From Candidatus Nomurabacteria bacterium (lineage in GTDB: Bacteria; Patescibacteriota; Minisyncoccia; Phycocordibacterales; CALRBL01): 64,000 nucleotides of DNA. Within the stretch, counting starts at the first letter, position 1; every line of letters starts with the position of its first letter. The notes below the pieces were generated by a model that saw only the letters and a list, made by a program, of their open reading frames with translations, had not been told where the DNA came from and searched no databases. Below, piece after piece: positions 9,144-59,494 of this stretch. The translations under genes and the position numbers were made by a program. Where the stretch lies: NCBI GenBank assembly GCA_963834935.1, contig CAWIDS010000001.1:1338-65337 (forward strand), written 5' to 3'.

Positions 9144-9163
9144 ATGCTATAATTTCAACCAAT

Positions 9164-9622
9164 ATGATGACAATCATTTTACTTGGGATATTAGGCGTAG
9201 TCATAAGCATTTTGGTAGGAATATGCTGGTACTCGACAAAAACGCCGATGGGCAAGCTTCATCTGGAATCGCTCGGCTTTTCGAATGTTTCAAAGGAAGA
9301 GCAAGAAAAGAAGATGCGTGAGATAAAACCGAAATTATGGAAATACTATGTCGGTCAGATTATCCTTTCTTTCCTGACTTCCACTTTCATCGCCTACATC
9401 ATGCTTGAACAAAGAATGTTCGGCATCGGCTCTGCTGCTATTTATGTGGAAGTAGGCGCGATCTGGCTTTGCTTTAACGTACCAATAGTCGGACAAACTC
9501 TATTATGGGGCAATTGCGATTTGAAATTACGTTGGAAAAAATTCTTCTCTGACATATTTGCTAACCTTGTAACCTACATGCTGATCATCTTCATATTCAG
9601 CTTGATATATGCCGCCCTATGA
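9164..9622 (+). CDS. Integral membrane protein, hypothetical.
   Basis: In-frame ATG after a TATAAT box at ~9146. About four TM helices. The ORF track started at 9023, inside the terminator. Confidence 0.5.
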   Translation: MMTIILLGILGVVISILVGICWYSTKTPMGKLHLESLGFSNVSKEEQEKKMREIKPKLWKYYVGQIILSFLTSTFIAYIMLEQRMFGIGSAAIYVEVGAIWLCFNVPIVGQTLLWGNCDLKLRWKKFFSDIFANLVTYMLIIFIFSLIYAAL

Positions 9623-9652
9623 GATAAGGTTCCATTTGAAAGGAGTTCATGT

Positions 9653-13072: not shown

Positions 13073-13564
13073 ATGCAAAATCTCCCTGAAAATAAAGTAA
13101 TGGCAAGCAGGATATTCGATGCACCGGTCGAGCAAGTCTGGGAAGCTTGGGCCAAGCCTGGACTGGTGATGAAATGGTGGGCTCCTGACAATTTCACTTC
13201 GCCGAGCGCGAAGATAGACTTCCGCGTCGGGGGAACTTCACTTGTCTCCATGCTCGCCCCGGAAGAGCTCGGCGGTCAGCACACATACAGCATATGGAAA
13301 TACGAGAAAATAATTCCTTACCAGCGGATCGAATTCATTCACAGCCTTTCCGACGAGAATGGGAACAAAATTAGTCCGAGCACCCTCGGCATGCCGGAAG
13401 ATTTTCCAGAAGACATGCCCATGGAAGTCATATTCAGGGACCTTGGCAAAAACAAGACGGAAATGACAGTTGTCCAGCACGGCTGGAATCAGGGGAAAAT
13501 GCGCGAAATGGCAGAAGCCGGCTTAAACCAATCGCTCGACAAGATGGTGCTGCTTTTTCAATAA
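13073..13564 (+). CDS. SRPBCC-superfamily protein (AHSA1 / activator of Hsp90 ATPase-like).
   Basis: VEQVWEAWAKPGLVMKWWAP signature. A TATAAT box sits about 15 nt upstream. Confidence 0.7.
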   Translation: MQNLPENKVMASRIFDAPVEQVWEAWAKPGLVMKWWAPDNFTSPSAKIDFRVGGTSLVSMLAPEELGGQHTYSIWKYEKIIPYQRIEFIHSLSDENGNKISPSTLGMPEDFPEDMPMEVIFRDLGKNKTEMTVVQHGWNQGKMREMAEAGLNQSLDKMVLLFQ

Positions 13565-13573
13565 AAAAGCCGC

Positions 13574-14149
13574 TCATGCAAGCGGCGTCTCTCCTTTCGT
13601 ATTGATGTATTCGACTGCCCTCGCTAGGCTGCATCTATCATCAGGATCTTCCTCATGAAAATACAATACCTGAGCGATCCTCGTCGCCCTATTCCAGACT
13701 TCGTCAGTCCGCGCCCAACCCGTATCACCCTGCCCAAGCGGCAAATAAAGCTGCTTCGGCAGAATATCGCAAAATTGGCCGAACGGCGGAAAAAGCAATG
13801 GCGAGAAAGCGAATACACCTGGAGGAAAAGGGTCGACCGATGCTCCATCTGGCAGCATAAGCCAGGAGTGCCTAATACTCTCATGAGGAACAAGCGTCGC
13901 CTGACCTTCCTTTTTGAGGACATAACTTCGATAACCCATCATCAGTCCATCTGCGACCTCTACGTCGTCTCCCAGATGAATTTTCAATCCCCTGCAGATC
14001 GAATGGCAGTTAGGCCAGAATAGCTTCCTTCTTTGCTTGTCTGCCTCGTCATGCACTTTTGAGAAGAATCTCGTTAGGCGTGTAATTTGGCTGTAAATCA
14101 TCTTGTCGGATCGGGATATTCTCCCGACTGATTCTTGTGCAGTAAACAT
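13574..14149 (-). CDS. Hypothetical protein.
   Basis: ORF of 191 aa, GC-rich, no recognised motif. An overlapping + frame ORF (13655..14023) is also unrecognised. Confidence 0.35.
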   Translation of the reverse strand: MFTAQESVGRISRSDKMIYSQITRLTRFFSKVHDEADKQRRKLFWPNCHSICRGLKIHLGDDVEVADGLMMGYRSYVLKKEGQATLVPHESIRHSWLMLPDGASVDPFPPGVFAFSPLLFPPFGQFCDILPKQLYLPLGQGDTGWARTDEVWNRATRIAQVLYFHEEDPDDRCSLARAVEYINTKGETPLA

Positions 14150-14181
14150 TCTTAATGGACACTATCATGTTTCATTCCTAG

Positions 14182-14892
14182 CTACCAGCCGCTCCGATGC
14201 GTCTTCCTATTCTTCCTTTGCATCACATGCACGGCAAATTCGCTGAACCGCGACGGCAGAAAGTAGATAATCGGCACTATTATGAAAAGGCCTATGGAAA
14301 GGAGCGGATCCCAGAAAGCGGCTGGGATCGAAAGAAAATACAACAGGAGCGCAGGAGTATTCCTCAGCACACGTTTCTTGCTGTATTCGCCTTGCAGATG
14401 AGGTTTGTAGAGCTTAGCCTTGTCAGCATAATGGGTAAGAAGCCAAAAAGCGACCGACACCAGAAAAAGATTCAATCCATAAAGAGCGACTGGTACTGGA
14501 TCAAGGGCATGCAAAGCGATGAAAGAGGTAGGAAACGGGATAAGGCAGATCCAGAAAAGCAAGTGGTTGTTCAGCCAGAGGAAATGATCGTCGGTATTCT
14601 CGAGCGTCGAGAAGAAATTATGATGATTGATGAGGAAAATTGCCACTACCATGAAACTCAAAGCGAAGCCGACGAAATTGTAGAGGACTGGAAACAGAGC
14701 GACAAGGAAATCATGGTAAGAAGCGCCAGCCTGAACTGCAGGAGCATGAAGGTCGAGAACAAGCAGCGTGAGGACGATAGCAAAAATGGAATCGCTATAT
14801 GCTTCTATCCTGCTTGTTGGTTTGAGATTGGACGACACGCATGATTGTACCAGACTCATGTATAATATAGCAATGGAATCGATCCCTCTCAT
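14182..14892 (-). CDS. DUF1211 domain membrane protein (TMEM175-like K+ channel family).
   Basis: RIEAYSDSIFAIVLTLLVLDL matches the DUF1211 signature. About six TM helices. The true start may be an internal Met. Confidence 0.7.
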   Translation of the reverse strand: MRGIDSIAILYMSLVQSCVSSNLKPTSRIEAYSDSIFAIVLTLLVLDLHAPAVQAGASYHDFLVALFPVLYNFVGFALSFMVVAIFLINHHNFFSTLENTDDHFLWLNNHLLFWICLIPFPTSFIALHALDPVPVALYGLNLFLVSVAFWLLTHYADKAKLYKPHLQGEYSKKRVLRNTPALLLYFLSIPAAFWDPLLSIGLFIIVPIIYFLPSRFSEFAVHVMQRKNRKTHRSGW

Positions 14893-15223
14893 CCCAAAGA
14901 ACGGACTGGAAGAACTGCAATCTTACATAAACCTTTCCGAGACGGCTATTCAGACAGAGTTCGAGACATCAACTAATGCCTGGGCTGATTGCTTCGGAAG
15001 CATGGTGGATGTCATAAGCATGTACCTGCATCTTCACAAAGTAAGCAAAAACCTGTCGCCAGAGATGCTAGAAATGGCAATACAAAGGACAGAGGAATTG
15101 AAAGACGAATTTTATCGGCTCAAGAGTGAGTACCCGAAAAGAGAAAATATCCCTTCAGAGGAAATAAGGCAGAGGCTTGTAAAAAGACTTGACGTCTTCG
15201 CTAGCGACTGGGGAAATATCTGA
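14858..15223 (+). CDS. Hypothetical protein, divergent from the DUF1211 gene.
   Basis: Internal Met of ORF 14768..15223. The longer ORF would overlap the minus-strand gene by 125 nt. Confidence 0.35.
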   Translation: MYNIAMESIPLIPKNGLEELQSYINLSETAIQTEFETSTNAWADCFGSMVDVISMYLHLHKVSKNLSPEMLEMAIQRTEELKDEFYRLKSEYPKRENIPSEEIRQRLVKRLDVFASDWGNI

Positions 15224-15248
15224 AAATAATGATAGGCATAATATGGCA

Positions 15249-15271
15249 TAAAAAAACCCGCTTAAAGCGGG
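15249..15271 (-). terminator. Rho-independent terminator, minus strand.
   Basis: AAAAAAA then CCCGCTTAAAGCGGG on the plus strand, which gives a hairpin plus U-tract on the minus strand. Confidence 0.6.
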
Positions 15272-15732
15272 AGGCATTGAATGCTGACGATTTCAAACAC
15301 GAGCTTACTCTCGCCAGAGACCCTGATCAAGGTTGCATTCTTATCCAGAAGGCCCATGAGATCTCTCCTTTCCAAAGCATTGCTGATTCCCGGTTTTTTG
15401 CAGTCAATGGGTAGGCAGCCGACCTGATATTGAGTGCCGTCTTCCATACTGACCCACAATGTCTGCTTGCCAGAGATCTTCACCTCCTTGTCATCAGCGG
15501 TACGATCCCTCCAAAAAAGCGCCACGATTCGGTCAGGCAGGATCACATTGGCGCAGTGGGGGCAATATCCCATGGCTTCCGTATTAGGATTCTGAATGAC
15601 CTCAAGCGACGTTCTGATGCCTATAGGGCCGAACCGGGCCCGGGTTCGCCTAACCCACTCCCATGAGCTGTAATTATAGAGGAACCTGAGACCGTCGATC
15701 CTCTTAGCCAAAGAACGAAAGAACTTTTCCAT
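15262..15732 (-). CDS. Hypothetical protein with CPHC and C..C motifs.
   Basis: ORF of 156 aa. Confidence 0.45.
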   Translation of the reverse strand: MEKFFRSLAKRIDGLRFLYNYSSWEWVRRTRARFGPIGIRTSLEVIQNPNTEAMGYCPHCANVILPDRIVALFWRDRTADDKEVKISGKQTLWVSMEDGTQYQVGCLPIDCKKPGISNALERRDLMGLLDKNATLIRVSGESKLVFEIVSIQCLPL

Positions 15733-15789
15733 ACATTGACAACATTAAACAAAATGACAGTTCTGTCAATGGTGTGATATCATTAGCGC

Positions 15790-16800
15790 ATGAAATTCAT
15801 TTTTATCGCAATGGTCGCTTTCTTGTTCTTATCCCCTCCTTTAATCGCTTCCGCGCATGAGGTATATGTGCTCCCTCCAGCTGAAATCCAGGCCGCACTG
15901 CATAGCCCGACAGTCTCCCCTTTGACGGTGATAAAGGACAACCTCGTCCAATTCACCTTCTGGGCCTTCATCGTCGCCTTGAGCATATTCTGCGTCTTCT
16001 TCATCTCTATCACCCGCAAATTCGAGAAATATCTCGCGCCTTTTTTCGCCAGAACCAAGCACTGGGCGCCGCTCATAGGCAGAGTGACAGTCGGGATCAG
16101 CTTTCTCGCCGCAGCTTTTTACCAAGCAAGCTATGGTCCTGAACTGCCGCTTGCTGCGACTTATGGATCCTATACTCCAATTGTAACCGCTGGACTCATT
16201 GCAATCGGAATGATGATTATCTTCGGAATCGGCGCGCGCATCGCCGCTTTCATCGCCCTTATCATGTATGGCGTCGCGGTCAATAACCACGGCTGGTACA
16301 TGCTTACTTACTCCAACTATCTTGGAGAAATACTCCTTTTGCTCCTCGTTGGCACCAGCAACAAGTCCCCATGGGCAAAAAAAATCGAACCCTACGGCTT
16401 CCTCATACTTCGCGTGCTTTTCGGCTGCGCCCTCATCTACACTTCAGTCTATGCCAAGCTCTGGTTCTCGAATCTCGCTTTGGATACGGTCACTTACACC
16501 AGAGGAGGTACTCTTCTTCCGCTGACTCACTACCTCCATTTCGAGCCGCACTTCCTCGTCCTCGGCGCCGCATGCATCGAGATCCTTATCGGCCTCTTCT
16601 TTATCCTCGGCATCGAAATCCGCTTCACCGCCTTATTCTTGAATTTCTGGCTGACGCTTTCGCTCATACATTTTGGAGAAATCGTCTGGCCACATATTAT
16701 ACTCATAGGCATCCCTATCGCATTCTTCTTCTACGGTTACGACAAATTCTCCCTTGAAGGCTATTTCTTCAAGAAAAAAGGACTTGAACCCGTTCTTTAG
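15790..16800 (+). CDS. Polytopic membrane protein, DoxX-like (tandem).
   Basis: Signal-like N-terminus. Two repeated units (RVTVGISFLAAAFY... and LRVLFGCALIYTSVYAKLW...) resembling DoxX-family repeats. Confidence 0.45.
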   Translation: MKFIFIAMVAFLFLSPPLIASAHEVYVLPPAEIQAALHSPTVSPLTVIKDNLVQFTFWAFIVALSIFCVFFISITRKFEKYLAPFFARTKHWAPLIGRVTVGISFLAAAFYQASYGPELPLAATYGSYTPIVTAGLIAIGMMIIFGIGARIAAFIALIMYGVAVNNHGWYMLTYSNYLGEILLLLLVGTSNKSPWAKKIEPYGFLILRVLFGCALIYTSVYAKLWFSNLALDTVTYTRGGTLLPLTHYLHFEPHFLVLGAACIEILIGLFFILGIEIRFTALFLNFWLTLSLIHFGEIVWPHIILIGIPIAFFFYGYDKFSLEGYFFKKKGLEPVL

Positions 16801-33222: not shown

Positions 33223-34773
33223 TTATACTATCCTTTCCGCTTTTTTAATAATCAGGTTCGCCTTGTCGATCTTTTCCCTGCTTTGCTCTTCTTCTATTTG
33301 AATTTCGGCAAAAACGCGTTCCAGTTCCTCTACATCGCGTGCCATTCCTTCCACTTTCGATTCAAGGTCCCATTGGTTCTTCTCGACATCGCGAAGAGAC
33401 TTTTCAAGCTGCCATCGCTGCTCCTCAAATGAATGCCTATCCTTCTCATTGGAAGCAGATTTTTCCAAAAGCTCCGTTTCCTCGATTTTTTTCTTCATCG
33501 ATGCGACGTCACTCTGCAGATTTTCTATTTGCTCGCGGATATGAGACATGTCTGATTTCGATTTTATCCAGTCTAACTCGTATTTCCTCTTCTTCTCGCG
33601 GGTCGAAGCTTGAATCTTCTCCTCGAGCACCTTGTCGATGCGAGCCTGTTCCGCTTCCTTCTTCAAAGTGATCACCTCAAGGTCTCTTTTGAATTTTTCC
33701 TGCTCGGCTTCGATCTTTCCTTTCTGCCTGTTCCTTTCCGAAAGCTGTTTCTCGATATCATCTATCTTCTGATGAATGTCCCACCGTTCCTTCTCATATG
33801 TCTGCCTCTGATCCTCGAGTGACCATCTTTTTTCCTCGATCGCCTTGTGAGATGAGATCGTTCCCGACTCCTTTTCCTTCATATTGATCGCCGCTTCCTG
33901 ATCCTCCACTGATTTTTCATGCAGGCGAAGCAGCTCCAAATCGCGAAGGTAGCTGTTCCTTGTCAAAGTAAGGGCTTGTATCTCCTTTGTAATTGCCGCT
34001 TTCTTCTCTTCAAGCGAGGCATCCTTGTCATAGAGCTCGGATTCATCTGTAGCGGTTTTAGGTGCCAGCTTCTCGGGAAAGATTATGGTCGAAGAAGGAG
34101 TTGGAGGAACTACAACTGAAGCAGGCTTCGGTTCAGGAGGCTTAGGTGCCGGTGCAGAAGCCGGCTTCCATGCCGATACCGGTTCCTTTTGAGGCGCGAG
34201 TTTCGCTGCTGCTACTGGCTCTGCTTTTTTCTCCTGCTTGATTTCCTGCTTGATCTCCGGCTTGATTTCCTGCTTTACCACCTCTTTCACTGGCTCAGAA
34301 ATGATTTCATTCTCTTGTTCCTTCGAAATGCGCTGTATCGCTTCTTTGACGACATTCACCACTACATTTACCGATTCAGGCTGTACTACTCCGCCTCCAA
34401 ATCTACTATAGGGGTTTTGCGCGCCGACAAAAGAGATGGAACTTGGCTCTGGCATCTTGGCGGCTGGCGGTTTGTAGGCACGAGCGAGCTCATCGGCAGA
34501 AAGGATAGGCTCAGCAGGCTGAGCATCCGTTCTCGGACGAGGCGGCCTAAGGTTGCTCGAGACAGGCTTCGGAGCAGAAGGCTTGTTACTTTTCAAAGTG
34601 AGGGTCATTTTCGAAAGATCTTCGTCCTTGGGAAGACTACTCACGCATGCAAGAACTTGCTGCTGGAAATCCCTGTCGAATTTAGAGAATTCCTCTTTGC
34701 TTATCTTGTTATTTTTCAAGAGACGCGCCGTATCGAGAACGATCGTCCTTGGTTGCTGTGGGTTCATATTCAT
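33223..34773 (-). CDS. Large coiled-coil protein with a Pro/Lys-rich N-terminal region and repeated E-x-x-R-W-x-L-E heptad-like motifs.
   Basis: 516 aa. Low-complexity PKPxxP segment. C-terminal 300 aa are charged coiled coil with repeats EEKRWSLEDQR, EKERWDIHQK and EEQRWQLEKS. Confidence 0.6.
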   Translation of the reverse strand: MNMNPQQPRTIVLDTARLLKNNKISKEEFSKFDRDFQQQVLACVSSLPKDEDLSKMTLTLKSNKPSAPKPVSSNLRPPRPRTDAQPAEPILSADELARAYKPPAAKMPEPSSISFVGAQNPYSRFGGGVVQPESVNVVVNVVKEAIQRISKEQENEIISEPVKEVVKQEIKPEIKQEIKQEKKAEPVAAAKLAPQKEPVSAWKPASAPAPKPPEPKPASVVVPPTPSSTIIFPEKLAPKTATDESELYDKDASLEEKKAAITKEIQALTLTRNSYLRDLELLRLHEKSVEDQEAAINMKEKESGTISSHKAIEEKRWSLEDQRQTYEKERWDIHQKIDDIEKQLSERNRQKGKIEAEQEKFKRDLEVITLKKEAEQARIDKVLEEKIQASTREKKRKYELDWIKSKSDMSHIREQIENLQSDVASMKKKIEETELLEKSASNEKDRHSFEEQRWQLEKSLRDVEKNQWDLESKVEGMARDVEELERVFAEIQIEEEQSREKIDKANLIIKKAERIV

Positions 34774-48223: not shown

Positions 48224-50830
48224 TTACTTTCCTAACACCTTCTTCAGATACTTTCCTGTATAGCTCTTCGGATTGTTGGCAACTTCCTCAGGGGTTCCCT
48301 TTGCGACAATGTTTCCACCAGCATCCCCTCCTTCAGGGCCGATGTCGATAATGAAGTCCGAAGACTTGATGAGGTCGATGTTATGTTCGATGACGATGAC
48401 GGTATTTCCCTTGTCAACCAGCTTCTGGATGATCTCGATGAGTTTCTTCACGTCTTCATAGTGAAGCCCGATGGTCGGCTCGTCCAAAATATATATCGAT
48501 TTTTGGATATGGGGGCGATAGAGCTCCGAAGAGATCTTCACGCGCTGCGCTTCTCCTCCTGAAAGTGTCGTCGCTGATTGCCCGAGCTCAAGATAACCAA
48601 GACCCACTTCATCAAGAGTCTTCAGCCGATCTGAAATGGATGGAATATCTTCGAAGAATTTCAAGGCTTCCTCGACAGTCATGCACAGCACGTCGTAAAT
48701 GCTCTTCTTCTTGTACTTCACTTCAAGCGTCTCCTTCATGAAGCGCTTGCCATTACAGACGTCGCAAGTCACGTAGACGGTCGGTAGGAAATGCATCTCC
48801 ACTTCTATCATACCGTTCCCTTGGCAGGTCTCGCAGCGGCCGCCTTTTACGTTGAATGAGAAGCGATTGGCTTTCCATCCGCGAGCCTTGGCTTCCGAAG
48901 TCTCGGCGAACATGTCGCGAATATGGGTGAAAGCACCGGTGTAGGTGGCTGGATTCGATCGGGGCGTGCGGCCGATCGGCGATTGATCGATGAGTATCGA
49001 GCGTCCGAGATATTCTGTACCGGTGAAGCTTCCGACATTGAAGAGTTTCGCTGTGCGGTAATTCTTCTCGAGGCGTGCCTGCAGATTTTGATGAATGATT
49101 TCGTAAACGAACGATGATTTTCCCGATCCCGAAACTCCGGTCACGCAAATGAAGCGGCTAAGCGGGATATCGACATTCAGATTCTTGATATTAAAAACAT
49201 TTCCTCCGCGAATCGAAAGCATGCCCATTTCCTTCGAACGCCTTTTCTGCGGAATTTCGATAACAGATTCGCCTCGCAGGTAGCTCAAAGTCAGCGAGCC
49301 GGATATGTTCTTCTTGGCGGTCAGAAGCTCGTCGAGATAGCCTGAGACGACGACATTTCCTCCATGCACGCCGGCACCCGGGCCGATATCTATGATGTAA
49401 TCCGACGCATATATGGTGTCTTCGTCGTGTTCCACTACTATTATGGTGTTCCCTGCGTCGCGAAGGCTGAGCAGCGTCTGGATGAGACGGTCATTATCCC
49501 GCTGGTGTAAGCCAATGGTCGGCTCGTCGAGAACATAAAGCGCTCCTACCAATCCAGAGCCGAGTTGCGAAGCCAGGCGGATACGCTGAGCCTCGCCTCC
49601 CGAAAGCGTATTGGCCCGACGCGAAAGCGACAGGTACTCAATGCCGACATCGTTCATGAAATTCAGGCGCGATTGGATTTCCTTTACCACCACTTTCGAA
49701 ATCTCTTTTTCTTTCGGCGATAGCTTCAGGCTTTTGAAGAAATCCGAGGCCCCTTTGATCGATTTGTCTACCAGATTGATGATGTTTATCTTCCCGCCAT
49801 CAACGATCAAGAAAACGTTTAAGGCTTCTTCGCGTAGACGTGCGCCATGGCATTTAGGGCATGGCTCATTGACGAAGAATCCCCGCGTGCCCAAACCATT
49901 GCACTCGGGGCAAGCGCCATACGGCGAGTTGAAAGAGAAAAGGCGCGGCTCGATCTCAGGATATGAGAAGCCATCGAACGGGCACATGAATTTCGAAGAG
50001 ATGAGGTGATCATCAGTCGGAGTGACAATGCGGAGCAATCCTTCGGATTCACCAAGTGCTTTCTCGATAGCCTCATTCAAGCGCTCGTCAAAAGCCTCTT
50101 TCTGCTTCTTGTCCTTGCTCGCGAGCTCAGATACATAAAAAGCATCAACAAGCACGTCGATACTGTGCTTCTTATTCTTCGAAAGAATGATCTGCTCGCG
50201 GAGCTTGTGCTTCACGCCGTCTACGCGCACTTCTTCATATCCTTTACCGAGAAGGTCATAGAGAAGCTGATAGTATTCACCTTTCCTTCCGACAACAAGC
50301 GGAGAGTAGATCGAGAACGTGAGATCGTCATAGGAAACACCCATGACTTCCTTCTTGCTTTTGACGGTATCAATGGTATTGACGGTCTTGATTATGCTCT
50401 CGAGAATCTCTTCCTTTGAGAGCTTCTTGATTTCCCTTCCACAGACGAGGCAATGCGGGCGGCCGATGCGGGCGAAGAGGATGCGGAGATAATCGTAGAT
50501 TTCGGTGATGGTGGCGACAGTGGAGCGAGGATTGTTCGAGCGGGATTTCTGGTCGATAGAGATAGCAGGCGAAAGGCCAGTGATCTCGTCGACATCCGGC
50601 TTCTGCATCTGGCGGAGGAATTGGCGGGCGTATGAGGAAAGCGACTCGACATAACGCCTCTGCCCTTCGGCAAAAATGGTATCGAAAGCAAGCGACGACT
50701 TTCCGGAGCCAGAAAGTCCGGTAATGGCCACCATCTTATTGCGCGGCATTTCCACAGTAATATCCTTCAGATTATGTGTCCGTGCTCCTTTGACAACTAT
50801 CTTTTCCTGGTGTTCTTTAGGTGTTTTCAT
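48224..50830 (-). CDS. uvrA: Excinuclease ABC subunit UvrA.
   Basis: Two ABC ATPase modules (GLSGSGKSS and GVSGSGKSS) plus zinc fingers. Start MKTPKEH. The ORF track over-extended to a GTG at 50869. TATAAT lies about 9 nt upstream of the ATG. Confidence 0.95.
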
Positions 50831-50903
50831 TAACGCGTAATTATATAAGATAAAAAAGTCCCCGTCCACCTTTGCAAGTGGCGAGGACAGAACGCGGATA
50901 CCG

Positions 50904-51110
50904 CTAGTGGGCAGGGCAAGCCGGGTGTAAATTGCGGAGGGAATCCGCTATCCTCTGGGCTACTCCAGCTGGATCGCGGTCAGATTCATCGATAAAACTA
51001 TCGAGGTCTTCTTTCCGTTGTTGCTGCCGTTGGCGCTCAAGGTCATCGGGCAGGCGTTGCTCCTGTTGCTGCGGCACGCAGCGTTGAAATGCATGGGGTT
51101 CGAGTTCCAT
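50904..51110 (-). CDS. Small Gln/acidic-rich hypothetical protein (68 aa).
   Basis: Sits in a GC-rich island. A hairpin plus TTTTTT terminator lies just downstream on the minus strand. The alternative frame ORF 50960..51175 has no terminator or SD logic. Confidence 0.4.
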   Translation of the reverse strand: MELEPHAFQRCVPQQQEQRLPDDLERQRQQQRKEDLDSFIDESDRDPAGVAQRIADSLRNLHPACPAH

Positions 51111-51183
51111 AAATGCTTCTCGTGGGTTGGTTTTGAGATCTGATTTAATAGTACTCCTCCTATTTTATTTTGCAAAACAGTTC

Positions 51184-51651
51184 CTATCTCGTTACGGAGA
51201 TCTGCTTGGTCGGATCCACCTCGCTTTTAGCACTGATGGTAATATGTCCGTTTAGATCCTGGAATATCGAATATGCGGTATCGTAATCAGTAAGCGACTT
51301 AAAATAAGCAGACTGATCCGTCGGATCGAATGGTACTGAAGCAAGATAGGTAGGCACTATGCAGGAAGCGATGTCGCTGCTTGAAGAAACGGAAGAGATG
51401 ATCGTTGTTGTCGCTGGTAGAGCCTTAGTCGAACTGCCGCAGGTGAATACCCCTTTATTCTCGGAAAAATTCTGGCCGATGGCATTCAATATCGCATTGA
51501 CATGGACTGCCCTTTCGGAATCCCTTGCAAGCTTGAATTGTCGGGCCGGGTTTACGGCTACCAGCACTGCAGTCGAAAGAAGAGCTATAAGCCCTATGAC
51601 GACCAGCATTTCCACTAAAGTGAATCCCCCTTCATTTATTTTTTTCTTCAT
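51184..51651 (-). CDS. Type IV pilin.
   Basis: Signal MKKKINEGG|FTLVEMLVVIGLIALLS with Glu at +5. Confidence 0.9.
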   Translation of the reverse strand: MKKKINEGGFTLVEMLVVIGLIALLSTAVLVAVNPARQFKLARDSERAVHVNAILNAIGQNFSENKGVFTCGSSTKALPATTTIISSVSSSSDIASCIVPTYLASVPFDPTDQSAYFKSLTDYDTAYSIFQDLNGHITISAKSEVDPTKQISVTR

Positions 51652-51696
51652 GGATCAATCGTAACCAAAAGAAGTCAAAGGAAGATAAAGGATGTT

Positions 51697-51909
51697 TCAA
51701 CAGCTTATTAAGAAATCCGGGTCGTATGACTTGTACAATGCTGCCCTATTAAGGCAGCTCTGCTTGCGATAATAATCATCAAGGTAAAGCTCGTGCCTGA
51801 GAACGGCATAACGAAGATTGCTGAGTTCTTCGTGTGTCGAATAGGCAATCATAAAAAGAAAAGATGCCAACATCAATATAGGGAGAAGTATGATAAAGCC
51901 CTTATTCAT
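51697..51909 (-). CDS. Small membrane protein (70 aa).
   Basis: One N-terminal TM helix. Its start overlaps the stop of the upstream 51-aa ORF. Confidence 0.45.
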   Translation of the reverse strand: MNKGFIILLPILMLASFLFMIAYSTHEELSNLRYAVLRHELYLDDYYRKQSCLNRAALYKSYDPDFLISC

Positions 51910-52057
51910 TGATATGGCTTAGGAATAATTGGTACTCGGCATTTATCTGTCTTGATAAGGCCCCTTCGGCATTCGTGATCTCAAAAAAAGAAACGAATGC
52001 CGCTGACAGGATAAAAGCTGCAAGAATATGATAGACGATCATTTCGAATAAAGTCAT
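51902..52057 (-). CDS. Small membrane protein (51 aa), translationally coupled.
   Basis: ATGA overlap with the stop of the 432-aa gene. Hydrophobic MTLFEMIVYHILAAFILSAAFVSFF. Below the ORF-track length cut-off. Confidence 0.4.
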   Translation of the reverse strand: MTLFEMIVYHILAAFILSAAFVSFFEITNAEGALSRQINAEYQLFLSHINE

Positions 52058-53352
52058 AGCGATGGTTTGATAACATAAATAAATAAGCCGCTTTCAGTAA
52101 TGATATAGAACGTATCTTGATCACAATCAAAAGCGACAGGTTTTGAGGAAAAGGCAATGGGCAAAGAATTTTGACGTGCAGCAGAAGATGACGCTGTCTG
52201 ATAGATGAGAAAGCCGTCGGCAAGATTCGTATCGGCGACAAAAAGAAGATTTCCATAGGCCAGTATTCCTGCCACGCTCGAACCAAGTGGAAAAGAGAAT
52301 TTTTTCTGAGTAGGAGATGATGTGGCTGTCAAGGCGAATAACTCATCCTTGCCGACCGTCCTGCCTAAAAAGACAGTGTCAAGAAACAATGAAAGGCGTT
52401 TTCCATTTCCTGAGCCTCCAGGAGCATCGAATGACGAATAAGGAGAAATGACCCCTGATGATGAAAGCGAGAATATCTCCAACTCAGAATTATTCGGACT
52501 TGCGACATAAACCTTGTCTTTAAAAGCGAATATGTCATTTACAGCATTTCCTATCTCGTATGACGAAGTCTCCTTCGGCAATAATGGATTGCTTGCATCT
52601 ATGACATGAAGCTCCGCAATCTGGCTTTTCTGCGTTCCTAAGAATATCTTCCCTGCCTTGTAGAAAAGAGCACTACCCACCGTCGTCTCATCATTATATT
52701 TTCCCGGCAGCTTGAAAGAAGATACTATGTAAGGATGGCTTTTATCTGAGATGTCGATAATCTGAAGCTGCGCATTAATGCTGCTGTTTCCGAGATAGGC
52801 ATGATTACCCGCAACCTTTATCGCAAGAGCTCCAGGCCCAGTATCAAGAGAAGAAAGCAAACGAGGGTATGCAGGGTTTGATACGTCGAAGGCAAAGAAG
52901 TCAGGATCAGTAGATGAGGCGGAATTTGCTGACAAGTAAAGTGATGTGCCAACGATATCGATTCCTGTTATGCTTATTCCCGCCCGAATGAAGGACGACA
53001 GATCGAGAACAGAATGGGAAGGGTTCTTCCACTGCGAGACATCTTGGTCCGGCCTGCACGAGCTTTGGCCGAGGCTTTCAGAAGTGTCGACAATATCCTC
53101 GGAAAGAGTGAACGAAGAAATCGTCACCACAGCTTTCTTAGTGAAATTATCAATATCGGTCGTCGATGCGGACGAGATATCAGAACCAAGATATTCATTC
53201 GCCAGATACATCGCCAATTCCCTGGAACTTATCTCAGTTATATCATGCTGATCTTCGAAAAGAATGAGGCAGATCAAGCTGATTGCTGCGACAAAGACCG
53301 CGCTCGCCACGAGCAATTCCAAAATGAGCATCCCGCGGTCCGTATTTTTCAT
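52054..53352 (-). CDS. Large prepilin-like protein: class III signal/pilin N-terminus fused to an LVIVD-repeat beta-propeller. Candidate pilus-tip adhesin.
   Basis: N-terminus RG|MLILELLVASAVF with Glu at +5. Repeats FFAFDVSNPAYP...GNHAYLG, LQIIDISDKSHPY, LHVIDASNPLLP and LEIFSLSSSG fit LVIVD-type repeats. Confidence 0.6.
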   Translation of the reverse strand: MKNTDRGMLILELLVASAVFVAAISLICLILFEDQHDITEISSRELAMYLANEYLGSDISSASTTDIDNFTKKAVVTISSFTLSEDIVDTSESLGQSSCRPDQDVSQWKNPSHSVLDLSSFIRAGISITGIDIVGTSLYLSANSASSTDPDFFAFDVSNPAYPRLLSSLDTGPGALAIKVAGNHAYLGNSSINAQLQIIDISDKSHPYIVSSFKLPGKYNDETTVGSALFYKAGKIFLGTQKSQIAELHVIDASNPLLPKETSSYEIGNAVNDIFAFKDKVYVASPNNSELEIFSLSSSGVISPYSSFDAPGGSGNGKRLSLFLDTVFLGRTVGKDELFALTATSSPTQKKFSFPLGSSVAGILAYGNLLFVADTNLADGFLIYQTASSSAARQNSLPIAFSSKPVAFDCDQDTFYIITESGLFIYVIKPSL

Positions 53353-53353
53353 A

Positions 53354-54382
53354 TTAGTGGGGAATGCTTACGGAAGAAGTGAGCTTGTAGATCGGCCCTA
53401 TCAAGGAAAGCGCTATAAAGCCGATTACCGAACCGAGAAAAACCATCAATGCCGGCTCGATAAGAACAAAAAGGCTTTCTTGCATATCTTTGATATCTTC
53501 TTCGCAAATATGGGCGAAATGAGAAAGAGTCTCGGACAAATTACCTGTCTCCTCACCAAGAATGATGAATTGAACCATCTCATGAGAGAAAAGGGGTGTG
53601 CCAGAAAGAAGCGTCTTAGAAAAGCGCGTGCCTTCCTTCAATAATGAGAGGATTAAAAGATATTCTTTTCTGATAAATGCACTCTTCTCCGTTTCGGATA
53701 TATGCGCCAAGGATTCGACCAAGGTGTAGCCGCTTTTCAGGAATAATGAAAGGCTTGAGGCGAATGAATGAAGTAAAGATAGTTTCGCCCATTTTTTCAG
53801 GAAAGGGATCTTGAAAAGATATTCTTTTTTGAATGAAAGATGAAATGAAGCAATGATGATAATTCCAGAAAATAATGCCGCCTGCCAGTGCATTTCCAAA
53901 AAAGCTGTCGAATGGACAAGTATCCGAGTGGGCAACGGTAAAGAAATGTCGCTTTCGGCAAATAAAGGAAGGATCTTGGGAAATACGAAAAAAATCAGGA
54001 ATGAAATAAGCACTATCGAGAAGCCGACTATGCACATTGGGTACATGAGAAGGGCAAAAAGCTTTCTCTTTCTCGATATCTTTCCTTCGAGGATGCCTGC
54101 AATCGTATGAACTCCCTCTTTTATCTTTCCCGTCAATTCAGAGCTCTCTAAAATGCGGATCATATCCTTTTCGAGAAAGCGGCCTTTAGCGTCGAAAGCC
54201 TTATGGATGCGAGATCCTTCCCTGATGCGCGAAATGACCTCTTCTATCAAGGATTTCATATGCCTTTTTTGCTCTCTTCCGTTGATTATGTGCAAAGCTT
54301 CCGAGAACGGAATACCCGACGAGAGCAAGAAAGAAAGCTTCTTCATGAAAGAAAACTGATCCTTAAGACTTGCGCTCCTCAT
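53354..54382 (-). CDS. pilC: Type IV pilus / T2SS platform protein (GspF family).
   Basis: Two GspF-like domains (FSFMKKLSFLLSSGIPFSEAL and FSHEMVQFIILGEETGNLSETL). Three TM helices. Confidence 0.85.
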   Translation of the reverse strand: MRSASLKDQFSFMKKLSFLLSSGIPFSEALHIINGREQKRHMKSLIEEVISRIREGSRIHKAFDAKGRFLEKDMIRILESSELTGKIKEGVHTIAGILEGKISRKRKLFALLMYPMCIVGFSIVLISFLIFFVFPKILPLFAESDISLPLPTRILVHSTAFLEMHWQAALFSGIIIIASFHLSFKKEYLFKIPFLKKWAKLSLLHSFASSLSLFLKSGYTLVESLAHISETEKSAFIRKEYLLILSLLKEGTRFSKTLLSGTPLFSHEMVQFIILGEETGNLSETLSHFAHICEEDIKDMQESLFVLIEPALMVFLGSVIGFIALSLIGPIYKLTSSVSIPH

Positions 54383-55224
54383 ATCATTTCGGCAAATAAT
54401 TTCCTCCCCTTATCAGGATGCGAGATCAATCTTTGATGAACCTGAAGCTGAAGGACTGATCTCAGAAGGTTTTCATCCACACCGAGATAGATGAACCTCT
54501 CTCGAATGGAGCGAACGGAAGAAGCGTGGATAGTAGAAAGCACGAGATGACCGGTGAGCGCGGCATGCACTGCCATCTCTGCGGTCTCCGAATCGCGGAT
54601 CTCGCCAATCATGATGATATCCGGATCCTGCCTCAGCACTGATCTTAATACTGTCGAGAAACGGAGCAATGTATTCCCGCCCACTTCAATCTGCCTAGCT
54701 CCACGTAGCCGGCATTCGACTGGATCTTCGACGGTTACGATCGAAACTGAATCGTTATTAAGCAAAGACAGGATCGAGTAGAGCGTTGTCGTCTTTCCGG
54801 ATCCGGTTGACCCGCCGATGACGATCAGGCCCTCATTGCTTATCGAATCATCAAGACGCCTTATCTGTTCCTTGTCAAAACCGAGATCCTCTAATTTCGG
54901 AATGCCTTGATTTGAACAGAAAAGCCTCAGGACAGCATTTTCCCCAAAAGAGGTAGGCATTATCGACACCCTTATATCAACTTCAAAGCCGTCTTTTGAT
55001 ACCCAATGGAATTTCCCATCCTTTGGCAACCTCCGGTCATCAAGCGGTAGCCTAGCAGAAACTTTGATCTGGGAAATGATATTCTCAAATACGAGAGAAT
55101 TACCCGCATTTGCGGGATAAAGGATTCCATCGATGCGATAACGCAAATAGGAATATTCCTTAAAAGGATCAAGATGGATATCCGAAGCGTTTTTATTGAG
55201 TGCATCTTCGATAATTTCATCCAT
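54379..55224 (-). CDS. Type IV pilus / T2SS ATPase (GspE/PilB/PilT family), core domain only.
   Basis: Walker A GGSTGSGKTT, Asp box DPVE, Walker B IIMIGEIRD, His box HLVLSTIH. 281 aa, no N-terminal domain. Overlaps the GspF-family gene by 4 nt. Confidence 0.85.
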   Translation of the reverse strand: MDEIIEDALNKNASDIHLDPFKEYSYLRYRIDGILYPANAGNSLVFENIISQIKVSARLPLDDRRLPKDGKFHWVSKDGFEVDIRVSIMPTSFGENAVLRLFCSNQGIPKLEDLGFDKEQIRRLDDSISNEGLIVIGGSTGSGKTTTLYSILSLLNNDSVSIVTVEDPVECRLRGARQIEVGGNTLLRFSTVLRSVLRQDPDIIMIGEIRDSETAEMAVHAALTGHLVLSTIHASSVRSIRERFIYLGVDENLLRSVLQLQVHQRLISHPDKGRKLFAEMI

Positions 55225-55302
55225 TGAGATATCGTAGCTTCATACCCTTAAACCCCGACCTAACTCCATATCAAATAAACCTAAATCCAGTATAATGGCC
55301 GG

Positions 55303-55899
55303 ATGAATTACCTCGATCCGCTTTTCCTAATCAAAACGCTCGGCCTTGTCGGCGTCATCTTCATTATCTTCGCCGAATCGGGCCTATTCTTCGGCTTCTT
55401 CCTGCCCGGTGATTCGTTGCTCTTCACTGCTGGATTGTTCGCTGCAGAGGGTTATATCAGCCTTCCGCTGCTTATGGCGCTCAGTTTCATTGCTGCGGTG
55501 CTCGGCGACAATGCCGGCTATGCCTTCGGAAAGAAAGTCGGCTTGAACCTTTTCAAGAAAGAAGACTCTTTCATCTTCAAGAAAAGATATCTTGAGCTGA
55601 CTAAAGCCTTCTATGAGAAGCATGGCAAGAAAGCGATTGTCCTTGCCCGCTTCACCCCCATTGTCCGAACCTTCACGCCGATCTTCGCGGGCGTCGCAGA
55701 CATGCCCTACCAGCTTTTCTTCGCCTATAATCTCATCGGGGGGTTTCTCTGGACATCGTTGCTCTGCCTTCTCGGCTTCTTCCTTGGCCACACATTCCCT
55801 GCCATCAACCACTACATCACTCCGATCGTTATTGCCATTATCATCGTCTCCCTCATCCCGAGCGTGATCAAGTTGCTGAAGAATCGAAGTAAAAAATAA
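55303..55899 (+). CDS. DedA-family membrane protein.
   Basis: DedA motif GFFLPGDSLLFTAG. Confidence 0.85.
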   Translation: MNYLDPLFLIKTLGLVGVIFIIFAESGLFFGFFLPGDSLLFTAGLFAAEGYISLPLLMALSFIAAVLGDNAGYAFGKKVGLNLFKKEDSFIFKKRYLELTKAFYEKHGKKAIVLARFTPIVRTFTPIFAGVADMPYQLFFAYNLIGGFLWTSLLCLLGFFLGHTFPAINHYITPIVIAIIIVSLIPSVIKLLKNRSKK

Positions 55900-55962
55900 A
55901 ATCTGGCATGGTTTTTTTCAAAGACGTTGCGAGGCTTGACGGAGCGAGCATTATTTTATCTT

Positions 55963-57195
55963 TTACTCGAACCTCAACGCCTCGATCGGGCTTTTCATCG
56001 AGGCTTGGCGCGCTGGATAGATGCCGAAGGTGAGGCCAACTGCCGCCGAGACGCCGATGCCGAGAAGTGCCGCTCCCCATGGAAAGACGAATTGCCAGCC
56101 GAATGGAATGACATGGGCGAGAATGATCGATATCAGATACGAGGCGCCTGTGCCGAGAATCACTCCGACCAGTCCCCCGAGCAAGGTCAGGATGACAGAC
56201 TCAAAGAGGAATTGGATGAGGATATTCTCGGTCGTCGCGCCCACTGCCTTGCGGAGTCCGATCTCGCGCGTACGCTCAGTGACCGACACAAGCATGATAT
56301 TCATGATGCCGATTCCTCCTACCACAAGCGACACGGCAGCCACAGCCGCAAGGAAATAAGTAAGGGCTCCCGTGATGATGCCGAGGCGGTTGGCGAGGTC
56401 GGCCTGATTGACCAGAGTAAAGTCATCCTTGGTTGAGTCGGTGATATTATGCGAGACTTCGAGCGTATTCTGTATGTCTATCATAGTCGAAGTGATGTTC
56501 GATTCATTGTCCACATCGACGACGATGCGGTCGAAATGCTTCGAACCGAAAAGGTAGTTCTCGGCAGTAGTGTAAGGAATGATGACGCCATCATCAAAAT
56601 TGATGACCGATGATGAGCCTTTCGAAGGAAGGACTCCCACAATCTTGAATGTCTTGTCGTGTATCTTGATCCTCTGTCCGAGCGGATCCTGGTCGGGGAA
56701 AAGCTTGTCTTTCACTTTGGAGCCAATGATCACGATGCTTGAATTGGCATTGACATCGTCGCTGGTGAAGAACGCCCCCTCATCCGGTTCAGCATCAAAA
56801 ATCTGGGGAAGGTTTTCCGACGTTCCGTAAATCGAGACTTGGTACGAATTGCTTTCGAACGAAGCGACATCATTGCCAAAAATGAGAGGAATGACCACGT
56901 TGGCATGAGGAACGTTGTATTTTTTCTGCAAGGCGGCTAAGTCAGCTTCCTTGAGCGACTCAAGGCCGACAGTAGTAGGCGGCCCTTGAAGCTGCCTGCC
57001 CGGCACCACAATGATCGATTTCGTGCCCAGGCCCTGCACTTGCGACAGGATGAGCTTCTGAGCTCCCTGTCCGAGCGAAACGATTAGGATGATTGCCGCG
57101 ATACCTATGACGATACCAAGTACAGTAAGTGACGAGCGCACGCGGTTGGTGGTAAGTCCTGTTATCGATGTGTGCAGATATTCGCTGAAGGTCAT
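55963..57195 (-). CDS. ABC transporter permease (MacB/FtsX type).
   Basis: MacB-like periplasmic domain and C-terminal FtsX 4-TM domain. Confidence 0.85.
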   Translation of the reverse strand: MTFSEYLHTSITGLTTNRVRSSLTVLGIVIGIAAIILIVSLGQGAQKLILSQVQGLGTKSIIVVPGRQLQGPPTTVGLESLKEADLAALQKKYNVPHANVVIPLIFGNDVASFESNSYQVSIYGTSENLPQIFDAEPDEGAFFTSDDVNANSSIVIIGSKVKDKLFPDQDPLGQRIKIHDKTFKIVGVLPSKGSSSVINFDDGVIIPYTTAENYLFGSKHFDRIVVDVDNESNITSTMIDIQNTLEVSHNITDSTKDDFTLVNQADLANRLGIITGALTYFLAAVAAVSLVVGGIGIMNIMLVSVTERTREIGLRKAVGATTENILIQFLFESVILTLLGGLVGVILGTGASYLISIILAHVIPFGWQFVFPWGAALLGIGVSAAVGLTFGIYPARQASMKSPIEALRFE

Positions 57196-57199
57196 TTTT

Positions 57200-57919
57200 T
57201 TATTTTATGAATTCATCGGTGCTTCTCCTGCGTTCGAGCACTTTCTCGTCTTTCACTATCTCTCCGTCCTGAATGCGGATAATGCGCTCCGCGTGCTCCG
57301 CAGTGAATGTCTCGTGGGTGATGAGAAGGATCGTGTGCCCCTGCTCTTCGTTGAGCTTCTGGATGATGTCCATCACCGCCTTTCCGGATATGGAATCAAG
57401 GTTTCCGGTCGGTTCGTCGGCAAAAATGACGCGCGGCTGATTGACCAAAGCGCGAGCGATGGCTACACGCTGCTTCTCTCCTCCGGAAAGCTCCGACGGC
57501 TCGTGCTCAAGCCTGTGCGAGAGGCCGACGGACTGGATAGCGTCTTTTGCCCTTTTATCCCATTCATCTTTTGGAACATTCGAGTAAAGAAGAGGCAGCT
57601 TGACGTTCTCAAGCACGCTTGTCTTTGCAAGCAGATTGAACGACTGGAAGATGAAGCCGATGTCGTGATTGCGGAGCTGTGCCACTTCCTTCTCGGTGAA
57701 ATTCGTTACTGATTTTCCGTCGAAGATATAATCGCCGGAAGTGGAATTATCAAGAAGTCCAAGAATATGAAGCAAGGTAGATTTTCCTGATCCTGACGGA
57801 CCCATGATAGCCAGGAATTCGCCTTTCCTCACTTCGAAAGAAATGCCTTTGAGCACGCGAGTGGTAGTCTCCCCTTCCGTATAATTCTTTATAAGGTTTT
57901 TTACTTCAATGATTGCCAT
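57200..57919 (-). CDS. ABC transporter ATP-binding protein (MacB/LolD type).
   Basis: Walker A GPSGSGKST, ABC signature LSGGEKQR, Walker B VIFADEPT. Confidence 0.9.
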   Translation of the reverse strand: MAIIEVKNLIKNYTEGETTTRVLKGISFEVRKGEFLAIMGPSGSGKSTLLHILGLLDNSTSGDYIFDGKSVTNFTEKEVAQLRNHDIGFIFQSFNLLAKTSVLENVKLPLLYSNVPKDEWDKRAKDAIQSVGLSHRLEHEPSELSGGEKQRVAIARALVNQPRVIFADEPTGNLDSISGKAVMDIIQKLNEEQGHTILLITHETFTAEHAERIIRIQDGEIVKDEKVLERRRSTDEFIK

Positions 57920-57931
57920 TATTTATTCTTT

Positions 57932-59494
57932 TTATGTCCGAGGAGGATTAGTGACGATCGTCTCGCCTTCCGAAAGTCCGCTGGTCACTTCGATATTTCC
58001 CGTGGCGTCGATCAGTCCTGTCTGGATGGTGCGAGTCTCTGTCGTATTGTCGCTTTTCATTACCAGGACGGTTTTGGCGCCGTTCTTAGTGATGACCGCG
58101 CTTTGAGGAACGACTATCACGCCAGGCCGCGTCGGGCTGTCGATATCGATATTGGCGGTCATGCCCGACTTAATGCGGTCATCAGCCGACGTGAACTGAA
58201 GAACTGTCTTGTAAGTGGCAACACCATCTACCTGTGTGCTTCCCTGATCGATGCTCGTGACGACGACGCCGAAATTCACTCCTCCACTGTAGGCGTCAAG
58301 CGTGACATTGCCTTTTTCACCGATTGCTATTTTTGATATATCCGCTTCAGGAATGTAGCTGTCGATCTCGAAATTGTCATTGCTTATCATGGAGATGCCG
58401 GTCGTAGGATCATTGGCATTAACAATCTCACCCTCAGTAAGGTTAGTTTTGGTAATAGTCCCGTCAAACGGCGCGACAATGGTGGTTTTCGCAAGATCGG
58501 CCTCGACTTGAAGCACTCCAGCCTGAGCGCTTTTGACTGCGGCTTCCTGGATAGCGATATCATCCGAGGTAGAACCGGCATTCTTGAGATTCAACTCGGC
58601 CTGCGCGCTCGTGTATGATTGTTCAGCCGCATTGATCGAGTCGATCGCTGCGTTTATGTTCGATCGGGCTACCGAAACATTATTCTGGAAATTCTGTATG
58701 TCAGCAGAAGACATCTGGCTGTCTGGCTGGAAGAGCGCAACAGCAGTCGCAACGTCATTGAGAAAGTCGCGCACCTGATCGAGGTTGGCCTTTGCCTCTG
58801 TGAGATATGAATCATTATATGTTCCATCCTCAAGCGTTGATATGGAAGCAGACCAGCTGGTAAGGGTCTTTTCCAAAGCGCCGCGCTCGGCATTTATCTT
58901 GATTCGGAGGTCGTATGCTGCGCCAGTAGTGTCGCTTGACGGCCCATTGAAAGTAAAGATCTGAGGGGTGGCACTCGTGCTACGGGGATTGACGAAGAAA
59001 GCGTCAGTCTTGTTGTGAATCGCATCGTCTGATTTTACGTAAGCATCAATGATAGAGGATTGAAGCGCGTTCTGAGCCTGGGTGAAAGCTGTTTGCGATA
59101 TGGCGATATCCTCAGGACGGGTGCCATCTTCCGCTTGCTGGAGATTGGCCTGAGCTGATTCGAGAGCGGCCTGCTTGCTGAGCAATGTTGCAGAAAGGTC
59201 ACCGGGGTCGACATAAGCAAGCTCTTGCCCCGCTTTGACCTTATCACCTATATTGACGAGGACCTTATCCACCCTTCCGCCCGTCTCGAAACCGAGCTGA
59301 ACATCATTTGCGGCAGTGACCGTACCTGTTACTGATACCTCTTGATAGAAGTCCTCCTTGGCTACTTTTGCCGTTTGGTAGTTGGAATTGCCTTTATGAG
59401 CCACCGATACCCACGCTGCACCCCCTAATACGAGGATGATAATGGGGATATAAACCTTCTTGAGCTTAAGGATCGAGTATATTTTTTTCATCAT
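57932..59494 (-). CDS. Periplasmic adaptor (HlyD / membrane fusion protein family).
   Basis: N-terminal TM, biotinyl/lipoyl-like hairpin, long coiled coil, beta-barrel. Forms an operon with the ABC ATPase and permease. Confidence 0.8.
   Translation of the reverse strand: MMKKIYSILKLKKVYIPIIILVLGGAAWVSVAHKGNSNYQTAKVAKEDFYQEVSVTGTVTAANDVQLGFETGGRVDKVLVNIGDKVKAGQELAYVDPGDLSATLLSKQAALESAQANLQQAEDGTRPEDIAISQTAFTQAQNALQSSIIDAYVKSDDAIHNKTDAFFVNPRSTSATPQIFTFNGPSSDTTGAAYDLRIKINAERGALEKTLTSWSASISTLEDGTYNDSYLTEAKANLDQVRDFLNDVATAVALFQPDSQMSSADIQNFQNNVSVARSNINAAIDSINAAEQSYTSAQAELNLKNAGSTSDDIAIQEAAVKSAQAGVLQVEADLAKTTIVAPFDGTITKTNLTEGEIVNANDPTTGISMISNDNFEIDSYIPEADISKIAIGEKGNVTLDAYSGGVNFGVVVTSIDQGSTQVDGVATYKTVLQFTSADDRIKSGMTANIDIDSPTRPGVIVVPQSAVITKNGAKTVLVMKSDNTTETRTIQTGLIDATGNIEVTSGLSEGETIVTNPPRT

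Follow-up and report, generated by a model that had tools for sequence, protein, structure and literature searches.

The locus described here raises the question of whether a type IV filament can carry a beta-propeller as part of one of its own pilins, and what such a propeller would do. We analyzed a 64,000-nucleotide stretch of DNA (the window) from Candidatus Nomurabacteria bacterium, which is part of a 432,723-bp contig and in which six close-packed open reading frames (ORFs) lie on the minus strand from 55224 to 51184. The original prediction, made from the sequence alone, had placed an ATPase, a platform protein, a 432-residue protein, two small ORFs, and a pilin in that order; all six were verified at the coordinates given, and the public annotation of the same sequence also calls all six. 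Pfam matches to T2SSE, T2SSF, and N_methyl bore out the type of locus as well: a bacterium of the Candidate Phyla Radiation (CPR)/Patescibacteria (Paceibacteria-like) carries here a compact operon for a type IV filament. We hold it to be moderately probable that the 432-residue protein is a pilin whose propeller is displayed at the filament tip as a ligand-binding module, as part of a priming complex of minor pilins.

A seven-bladed LVIVD beta-propeller behind a pilin-type N terminus

The 432-residue protein (52054..53352, minus strand) matched the Pfam family LVIVD (PF08309) with an E-value of 5.4e-12 and 45.3 bits, against a cut-off of 20.2, and the family Beta_propel with an E-value of 6e-05. 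The claim that an LVIVD propeller follows the pilin helix was thereby substantiated, and the finding that had been named in advance as fatal to it, repeats that fail every propeller profile, was not borne out. An AlphaFold2 (AF2) model built with a 54-sequence alignment, with a predicted local distance difference test score (pLDDT) of 94.1 and a predicted template modeling score of 0.87, supported the same arrangement. A 53-residue N-terminal helix (residues 5-57) was followed by strands at residues 61-66, 71-78, and 81-88, as it also was in a cropped model. In the full-length model, a linker then led to 27 strands that form seven four-stranded blades over residues 112-429 with a pLDDT >90. 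Repeats of ~44 residues that form blades are what marks the LVIVD family, and seven LVIVD-type C-strands can be read in the sequence (FFAFDVS, LQIIDIS, LHVIDAS, LEIFSLS, LFALTAT, FLIYQTA, and LFIYVIK). At least four LVIVD repeats had been predicted; the repeats are there, but the count was an underestimate, as both the sequence and the AF2 model give seven blades.

All parts of the protein are encoded on the minus strand. The alpha1 helix of the pilin module, in which residue 12 is the Glu at +5, spans 53182..53331 (AF2 and homologues), and the three-stranded beta-sheet that would make up a small pilin head (residues 61-88) spans 53089..53172 in the AF2 model. A conserved linker motif, GQSSCRP, which is invariant in the close set A2, lies at 53050..53070, and the propeller (residues 112-432), which is acidic with an isoelectric point (pI) of 5.05, occupies 52057..53019 according to Pfam, AF2, and Foldseek. 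Searching the full model against the PDB with Foldseek returned generic WD40-like seven-bladed propellers with E-values of about 1e-11 (beta-TrCP, Sec12, and Vgb lyase) and no functional lead. Across the 54 homologues described below, Cys99 in the GQSSCRP linker and Cys410 in the FDCD motif of the last blade are present together in 37, absent together in 14, and discordant in 3, a pattern in which a Cys99-Cys410 disulfide probably ties the linker to the last blade.

The N terminus reads MKNTDRG↓MLILELLVASAVFV, that is, MKNTDRG↓MLILE (the arrow marks the position of possible leader cleavage), and has the class III signature of a Gly at -1, a hydrophobic residue at +1, and a Glu at +5 that opens a hydrophobic stretch. 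The possible 7-residue leader, MKNTDRG with its Gly at -1, is encoded by 53332..53352 (minus strand) and is indicated by the sequence and the homologues. An alternative start is Met8 at 53331, which the public gene call uses (425 residues). Since both candidate starts give the mature N terminus Met-Leu-Ile-Leu-Glu, leader cleavage matters little for the product.

Conservation of the signature was assessed in 54 full-length homologues of 420-590 residues. Of the 44 homologues with a leader, 43 carry Gly(-1); Glu(+5) is replaced by Asp in one of the 54 and kept in the other 53. Many carry the canonical motif G↓F(S/T)L(I/V)E. The LVIVD family is matched by 52 homologues and N_methyl, at E<=0.01, by 8 (P0090, for example, with 24.2 bits against a cut-off of 21.2). 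When a profile of the N-terminal module was compared with the PDB, type IV pilins made up 8 of the top 10 matches, with weak E-values of 0.003-0.3. The AF2 model also has an N-terminal alpha1 helix of ~50 residues with a beta-sheet head, as type IV pilins do. Given the near-invariance of Gly(-1) and Glu(+5), the 432-residue protein is, as far as sequence can tell, a modular type IV pilin with a class III-type N terminus; it combines a pilin module with a domain known from contexts other than type IV filaments, as modular pilins sensu Raynaud et al. 2021 do. We also considered it as a PilY1 homologue and rejected this, since no PilY1-type propeller family of Pfam matched at E<=1 and the N terminus is of the pilin type.

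A recurring operon plan with truncated minor pilins

The original prediction proposed a comparison of related pilin loci, and in this comparison the operon order recurred. The comparison set held 16 genome loci, obtained by a scan with the 18 closest sequences, and the metagenomic loci L018 and L019 (L numbers designate loci of this set); the 16 come from metagenome-assembled genomes labeled Paceibacterota, Nomurabacteria, Doudnabacteria, Taylorbacteria, or 'Saccharibacteria'. Their common plan is ATPase, platform, a GspH-like pilin in some, LVIVD pilin, GFTLIE-type minor pilin, a minor pilin without Glu5, and major pilin. The extra pilin of ~150 residues that follows the platform gene was found only in distant relatives and matches GspH/ComGD (TIGR01708, E=9e-10, under the cut-off). 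With this match, the set fits the four-minor-pilin tip complex that has been described for type IVa pili (T4aP), type II secretion system pseudopili, and Com pili (PMC12153270). Measured against that set, the clade of the window has lost one member and cut down two.

In the window, the ATPase and platform genes are joined by an ATGA overlap and the platform and 432-residue genes by TAAtATG, both as read from the sequence, while the junctions to the 51-residue and then the 70-residue ORF are overlaps of ATGA and ATGAATAA, as had been described. Promoter and terminator scans of 50800-55500 found sites no more numerous than in shuffled sequence and therefore do not define the transcription unit. 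The 51-residue ORF (51902..52057, minus strand; MTLFE..., Glu at +5) aligns with the N-terminal helix of the GFTLIE-type minor pilin that occupies the same operon position and that has 50-58 residues in close relatives and 124-172 in distant ones. Judged by this homology and by its position, it is a leaderless alpha1-only remnant of that pilin. The 70-residue ORF (51697..51909, minus strand; MNKG↓FIILLP...) aligns with the minor pilin that lacks Glu5, of 70-83 residues in close relatives and 115-146 in distant ones. All of its 13 homologues (70-146 residues, same operon position) have Gly(-1), and Cys52 is conserved among them; by this signature the ORF is a truncated G↓FIILL minor pilin of the GspK/PilX/ComGG kind. 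Neither the GFTLIE-type nor the Glu5-less pilin of the relatives was assigned specifically to GspI, GspJ, or GspK by Pfam and NCBIfam. The two minor pilins have thus been reduced from about 150 residues to 51 and 70. The original prediction saw two small membrane ORFs here; they are real and translationally coupled, but they are better described as truncated minor pilins than as generic membrane proteins. That they might be spurious was rejected, as they are conserved in relatives and called in the public annotation.

The last gene of the operon (51184..51651, minus strand) encodes the presumed major pilin of 155 residues, MKKKINEGG↓FTLVEMLVVIGL..., which matched N_methyl (2.2e-06) and TIGR02532 (5.9e-05) and is 77% identical to the pilin of L002 and 40-55% identical to the pilins of distant relatives. 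A second, orphan pilin gene (1538-2098, plus strand; 186 residues, MKFFSKKKG↓FTLIELLVV, N_methyl E=3.6e-09) is found at a distance of 49 kb from the operon, with no adjoining assembly genes. A 516-residue Pro/Lys-rich coiled-coil protein without a Pfam match is encoded at 33223-34773 (minus strand), 16 kb from the operon; its homologues stand directly 3' of the major pilin gene in three relatives, at L019 12372-13658, L004 8014-9105, and L008 about 8816-10240 (tblastn 1e-47, 3e-41, and 5e-06), and the protein may be pilus-associated.

Leaderless starts were found in two minor-pilin families. Among the 54 LVIVD pilins, 10 begin with Met at +1 (for instance MKILEV and MKLVEL) and keep Glu at +5, and the 51-residue pilin of the window likewise starts at Met +1 (MTLFEM) with Glu at +5. 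Besides the start in the window (51902-52057, minus strand), such starts lie at L005 6007, L007 5797, L010 5578 and 6907, and L004 5791 and 7083. In L005, L007, and L010, an in-frame stop stands 1-4 codons upstream of the leaderless start at the DNA level, so that a leader is impossible there. At L004 7083, the in-frame stop is 11 codons upstream with no start codon between, and the start at L004 5791 counts as leaderless only in that its ORF has no earlier start. The recurrence in two families suggests that some minor pilins are leaderless and would enter the filament without cleavage by a prepilin peptidase. PilX1 and PilX2 of the Saccharibacteria strain TM7x are likewise without predicted PilD signal peptides (PMC12206443).

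The reduced layout is present with intact ORFs in at least five genomes (L002, L005, L009, L019, and the window), at 37-59% protein identity. An exhaustive profile search gave 71,052 matches, mostly giant multi-propeller LVIVD proteins, and yielded no clean family count; a pilin module was present in 35 of the best 150 cluster representatives of these matches, which shows pilin-fused LVIVD propellers to be common. Some of the proteins are multi-propeller pilins of 791-1998 residues, which join a pilin-type N terminus (e.g., MNGNKG↓FLLVELLVAMG) to two or more LVIVD propellers (P0132, P0153, P0170, P0189, P0207, P0215, P0222, P0226, and P0248).

A minimal assembly ATPase and its platform protein

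The assembly ATPase of the PilB/GspE/ComGA type (281 residues; 54379..55224, minus strand) matched Pfam T2SSE with E=1.2e-84 over profile positions 13-279 of 370. It aligns with residues 186-450 of the 566 of Myxococcus xanthus PilB, and the limits of this alignment indicate that the N2 domain and the RecA-like core are kept and that N1 is lost. The four catalytic motifs are intact (Walker A GSTGSGKTT, Asp box VEDPVE, Walker B DPDIIMIGEIRD, and His box TGHLVLSTIHA), so that, together with the T2SSE domain, the protein has what characterizes a type IV filament extension ATPase. It does not have the full-length architecture of N1, tetracysteine Zn motif, and C-terminal subdomain: the CxxC...CxxC Zn loop and the final ~70 residues that form the C-terminal subdomain, both present in aligned relatives, are missing, and the chain stops just past the GR...AE motif. 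The original description of a bare core with no N-terminal domain was accurate as to the minimal core and the loss of N1, but N2 is kept, and the C-terminal loss is the more unusual feature.

An equal truncation was found in L009 (290 residues, 246-1118), L005 (311 residues, 4033-4968), and L019 (295 residues, 8060-8947), and by this comparison the C-terminal loss is a feature of the clade and not an assembly artefact. The ATPases of more distant relatives have 363-417 residues (longest ORF from the first start codon), and that of the distant relative L018 has 558, with the domains MshEN+T2SSE, which gives a reduction series of 558, about 365-410, and 281 residues. The pilus operon of L018 is flanked by genes for a response regulator and a PAS histidine kinase (6317-6694 and 13088-15949); together with the MshEN ATPase, these two-component genes hint that assembly is regulated in the unreduced version.

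The platform protein of the GspF/PilC/ComGB type (342 residues; 53354..54382, minus strand) matched Pfam T2SSF in two stretches (E=1.7e-41) and the NCBIfam models TIGR02120 GspF (2e-49) and ComGB (2.4e-41), both under the equivalog cut-offs. The nearest NCBIfam models were GspE, PilB, and ComGA for the ATPase and GspF, ComGB, and PilC for the platform, and all scores were well under the equivalog cut-offs: for the ATPase, 300 bits versus 630 for GspE and 227 versus 300 for ComGA, and for the platform 142 versus 240 for ComGB. The two proteins therefore represent a generic type IV filament core of no named subtype. Neither the operon nor the rest of the 64-kb window encodes a retraction ATPase, and PilM, PilN, and PilO are likewise absent from the window. 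Upstream of the operon (55303-59494), there is conserved synteny, shared with L001, L005, L008, and L019. It covers three same-strand genes, for an HlyD-like adaptor, an ABC ATPase, and a MacB-type permease, and one gene of the VTT/DedA family on the opposite strand.

A proposed place for the propeller pilin at the filament tip

We propose that the propeller pilin, the 51-residue alpha1-only pilin, and the 70-residue Glu5-less pilin would form a priming complex that caps the filament, like GspH-I-J-K, FimU-PilVWX, and ComGD-G elsewhere. The ATPase and the platform would then add the major pilin beneath this complex, and because addition is from beneath, the propeller would end at the distal tip. 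There it would bind a ligand, most likely a structure on the surface of a partner cell, a host cell, or a substrate. The propeller pilin would fill a GspI/PilV-like slot, to judge by elimination, its place in the operon, and the size of its module. Binding at the tip is suggested by the pilin signature, by the fixed place of the gene among the minor pilins, by the modeling of modular pilins at the pilus tip (PMC8179133), and by the host-binding defect of a TM7x mutant without the propeller minor pilin PilX2 (PMC12206443). From operon position, the conserved pilin signature, and analogy, a role as a tip adhesin in host recognition is plausible.

Several observations weigh against this proposal. 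The 432-residue protein has no match to N_methyl (PF07963) or TIGR02532 at E<=1; the predicted class III N terminus, G↓MLILE, thus stands as a motif with family-wide Gly(-1) and Glu(+5), but not as a profile match. With the isolated N-terminal module (cropped model, pLDDT 84), Foldseek found no significant solved pilin. The prepilin peptidase motif G[GAM]GD[VAIL]K had no match in the 64-kb window or in any of the fetched loci, in a search too crude to count as absence. Matches of the 432-residue protein to GspI (E=0.23) and ComGE (E=0.089) are not significant, which leaves the GspI/PilV slot without sequence support. The LVIVD pilin gene of some Doudnabacteria-type loci comes after that of the major pilin and does not stand among those of the minor pilins. 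Finally, the ATPase is severely truncated.

One other reading is that the operon builds a Com-like DNA-uptake pilus whose tip propeller would be a DNA receptor feeding a nucleotide-auxotrophic CPR cell. The operon is minimal in the way comG is, with an ATPase, a platform, and pilins only, and the ATPase and the platform cover nearly all of the ComGA model (2-266 of 267, E=1.5e-67) and of the ComGB model (1-330 of 332, E=2.4e-41). The family profile also matched solved 'YncE family' propellers (E=6e-07). YncE of Escherichia coli binds DNA. The tip minor pilins of Com pili bind DNA in monoderms (PMC12153270), which counts in the same direction. Yet acidity of the propeller is a trait of the whole family (median pI 4.69, range 4.05-6.38; median net charge -12), which argues against a DNA receptor, and the ComGA and ComGB scores are not only under their cut-offs, as given above, but also under the GspE/PilB scores. 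Neither these scores nor the gene order are those of a ComG-type competence operon (comGA-GB-GC-GD-GE-GF-GG, in which GC is the major pilin), since the major pilin comes last here. In TM7x, moreover, the pilus with the propeller pilin is reported to contribute to host binding and not to competence (PMC12206443). We therefore consider a DNA-uptake pilus with the propeller as its receptor improbable, although DNA uptake by the pilus as a whole is conceivable.

Another reading is that the 432-residue protein is a surface propeller outside any filament that is held in the membrane by an uncleaved pilin-like helix and serves either for adhesion at short range or as an accessory to the assembly machine. 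The missing N_methyl match and the crude peptidase search in the window are in line with it, as are the public gene call, which begins leaderless at Met8, and the 10 leaderless homologues of 54, of which those in L005, L007, and L010 are borne out by the DNA sequence. A plain anchor, however, would not keep Glu at +5 in 53 of 54 homologues or Gly at -1 in 43 of 44, and this conservation disfavors the plain transmembrane anchor that the original prediction had named as the finding that would overturn it. The leaderless forms, moreover, keep Met +1 and Glu +5, so that their N terminus equals that of a processed pilin, and the gene always lies among minor pilins, near the ATPase and the platform. 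On this evidence, we regard a non-filament propeller as unlikely.

That the operon is a decaying remnant from which no filament is built any longer, as the ATPase without N1, Zn loop, and C-terminal subdomain, the absence of the GspH-like minor pilin, and the shrinkage of the other two to 51 and 70 residues could suggest, is very improbable: at least five genomes with 37-59% protein identity share this reduced layout and have unbroken ORFs, the four catalytic motifs of the ATPase are intact, and the translational coupling has been kept.

Discussion

The repeat that forms the propeller is present in InterPro as IPR013211, which we take to be the entry for Pfam LVIVD. Dataset S1 of Raynaud et al. 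2021 lists about 30 InterPro proteins in which IPR012902 is followed by one to thirteen IPR013211 units (PMC8179133). The IPR012902 + IPR013211 architectures comprise 8, 8, 7, 4, 1, 1, and 1 proteins, with one more that combines IPR013211 + IPR019198, and among the IPR012902 + IPR013211 cases is an 860-residue Falkowbacteria protein with the label 'motif of unknown function' (PMC8179133). That catalogue gives the architecture alone, with no structure, operon context, or role (PMC8179133), and as the 432-residue protein fails the N_methyl profile, a survey of that type would have missed it. In the literature searched, no paper joining LVIVD with Patescibacteria was found, and the only one to join LVIVD with a pilin was a study of the candidate order Tenderiales, which from its available portion was judged unrelated.

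The closest likeness is to PilX2 of the T4P-2 type IV pilus of TM7x (Nanosynbacter lyticus), a CPR minor pilin with a C-terminal seven-bladed propeller and a non-canonical signal peptide (Grossman et al. 2025, PMC12206443), which has been proposed to be the adhesin of that pilus and without which host binding is not normal (PMC12206443). The comparison was made with PilX2 as described, and the propeller of PilX2 is described as consisting of RCC1 repeats (PMC12206443), whereas ours is of the LVIVD kind: the 432-residue protein had no Pfam match to RCC1 at E<=1, only to LVIVD and Beta_propel. The T4P-2 of TM7x further has pilM/N/O and has its pilins at a separate locus, whereas here the ATPase, the platform, and the pilins share one operon, in another CPR class. 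There is also a likeness to PilY1/PilC, which with FimU-PilVWX of T4aP forms a seven-bladed tip propeller on a core minor-pilin complex and serves priming and adhesion (PMC8179133, PMC12206443). PilY1 differs in that it is not a pilin, docks non-covalently, and has a propeller of another family (IPR008707), whereas the propeller here is covalently fused to a pilin. If the tip reading is right, the propeller pilin would be, by analogy, the functional equivalent of both the PilY1 propeller and the Saccharibacteria T4P-2 PilX2.

The ComG pilus of monoderms, a type IVd pilus, resembles the system described here as a minimal machine (an ATPase, a platform, a single major pilin, and minor pilins) with its prepilin peptidase elsewhere and a tip of four minor pilins (PMC12153270). 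The operon differs from it in gene order, in having only three minor pilins, and in not reaching the ComGA/ComGB cut-offs. We know of no Com minor pilin that carries a propeller.

The novelty implied by the original prediction was overstated, since the concept is already published: modular pilins that join N_methyl and LVIVD are listed in one study (PMC8179133), and a propeller pilin adhesin is described in another (PMC12206443). What is added here is the anatomy at the level of the operon, the connection with the tip complex of four minor pilins, and the reduction series; this series and the leaderless pilins are the most original by-products. The series, which runs through the ATPase, the minor pilins, and the loss of leaders, could show the minimal needs of a type IV filament. 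It is conceivable, though on the doubtful side, that the clade has the most pared-down type IV filament machine noted to date, with a 281-residue ATPase and a 51-residue alpha1 pilin, that pilins of the Met1...Glu5 form enter it unprocessed, and that the propeller pilin determines host specificity. Little is known of how CPR/Patescibacteria other than the Saccharibacteria locate their partners and stay attached to them, and the propeller pilin is a concrete candidate for recognition in Paceibacteria-type lineages.

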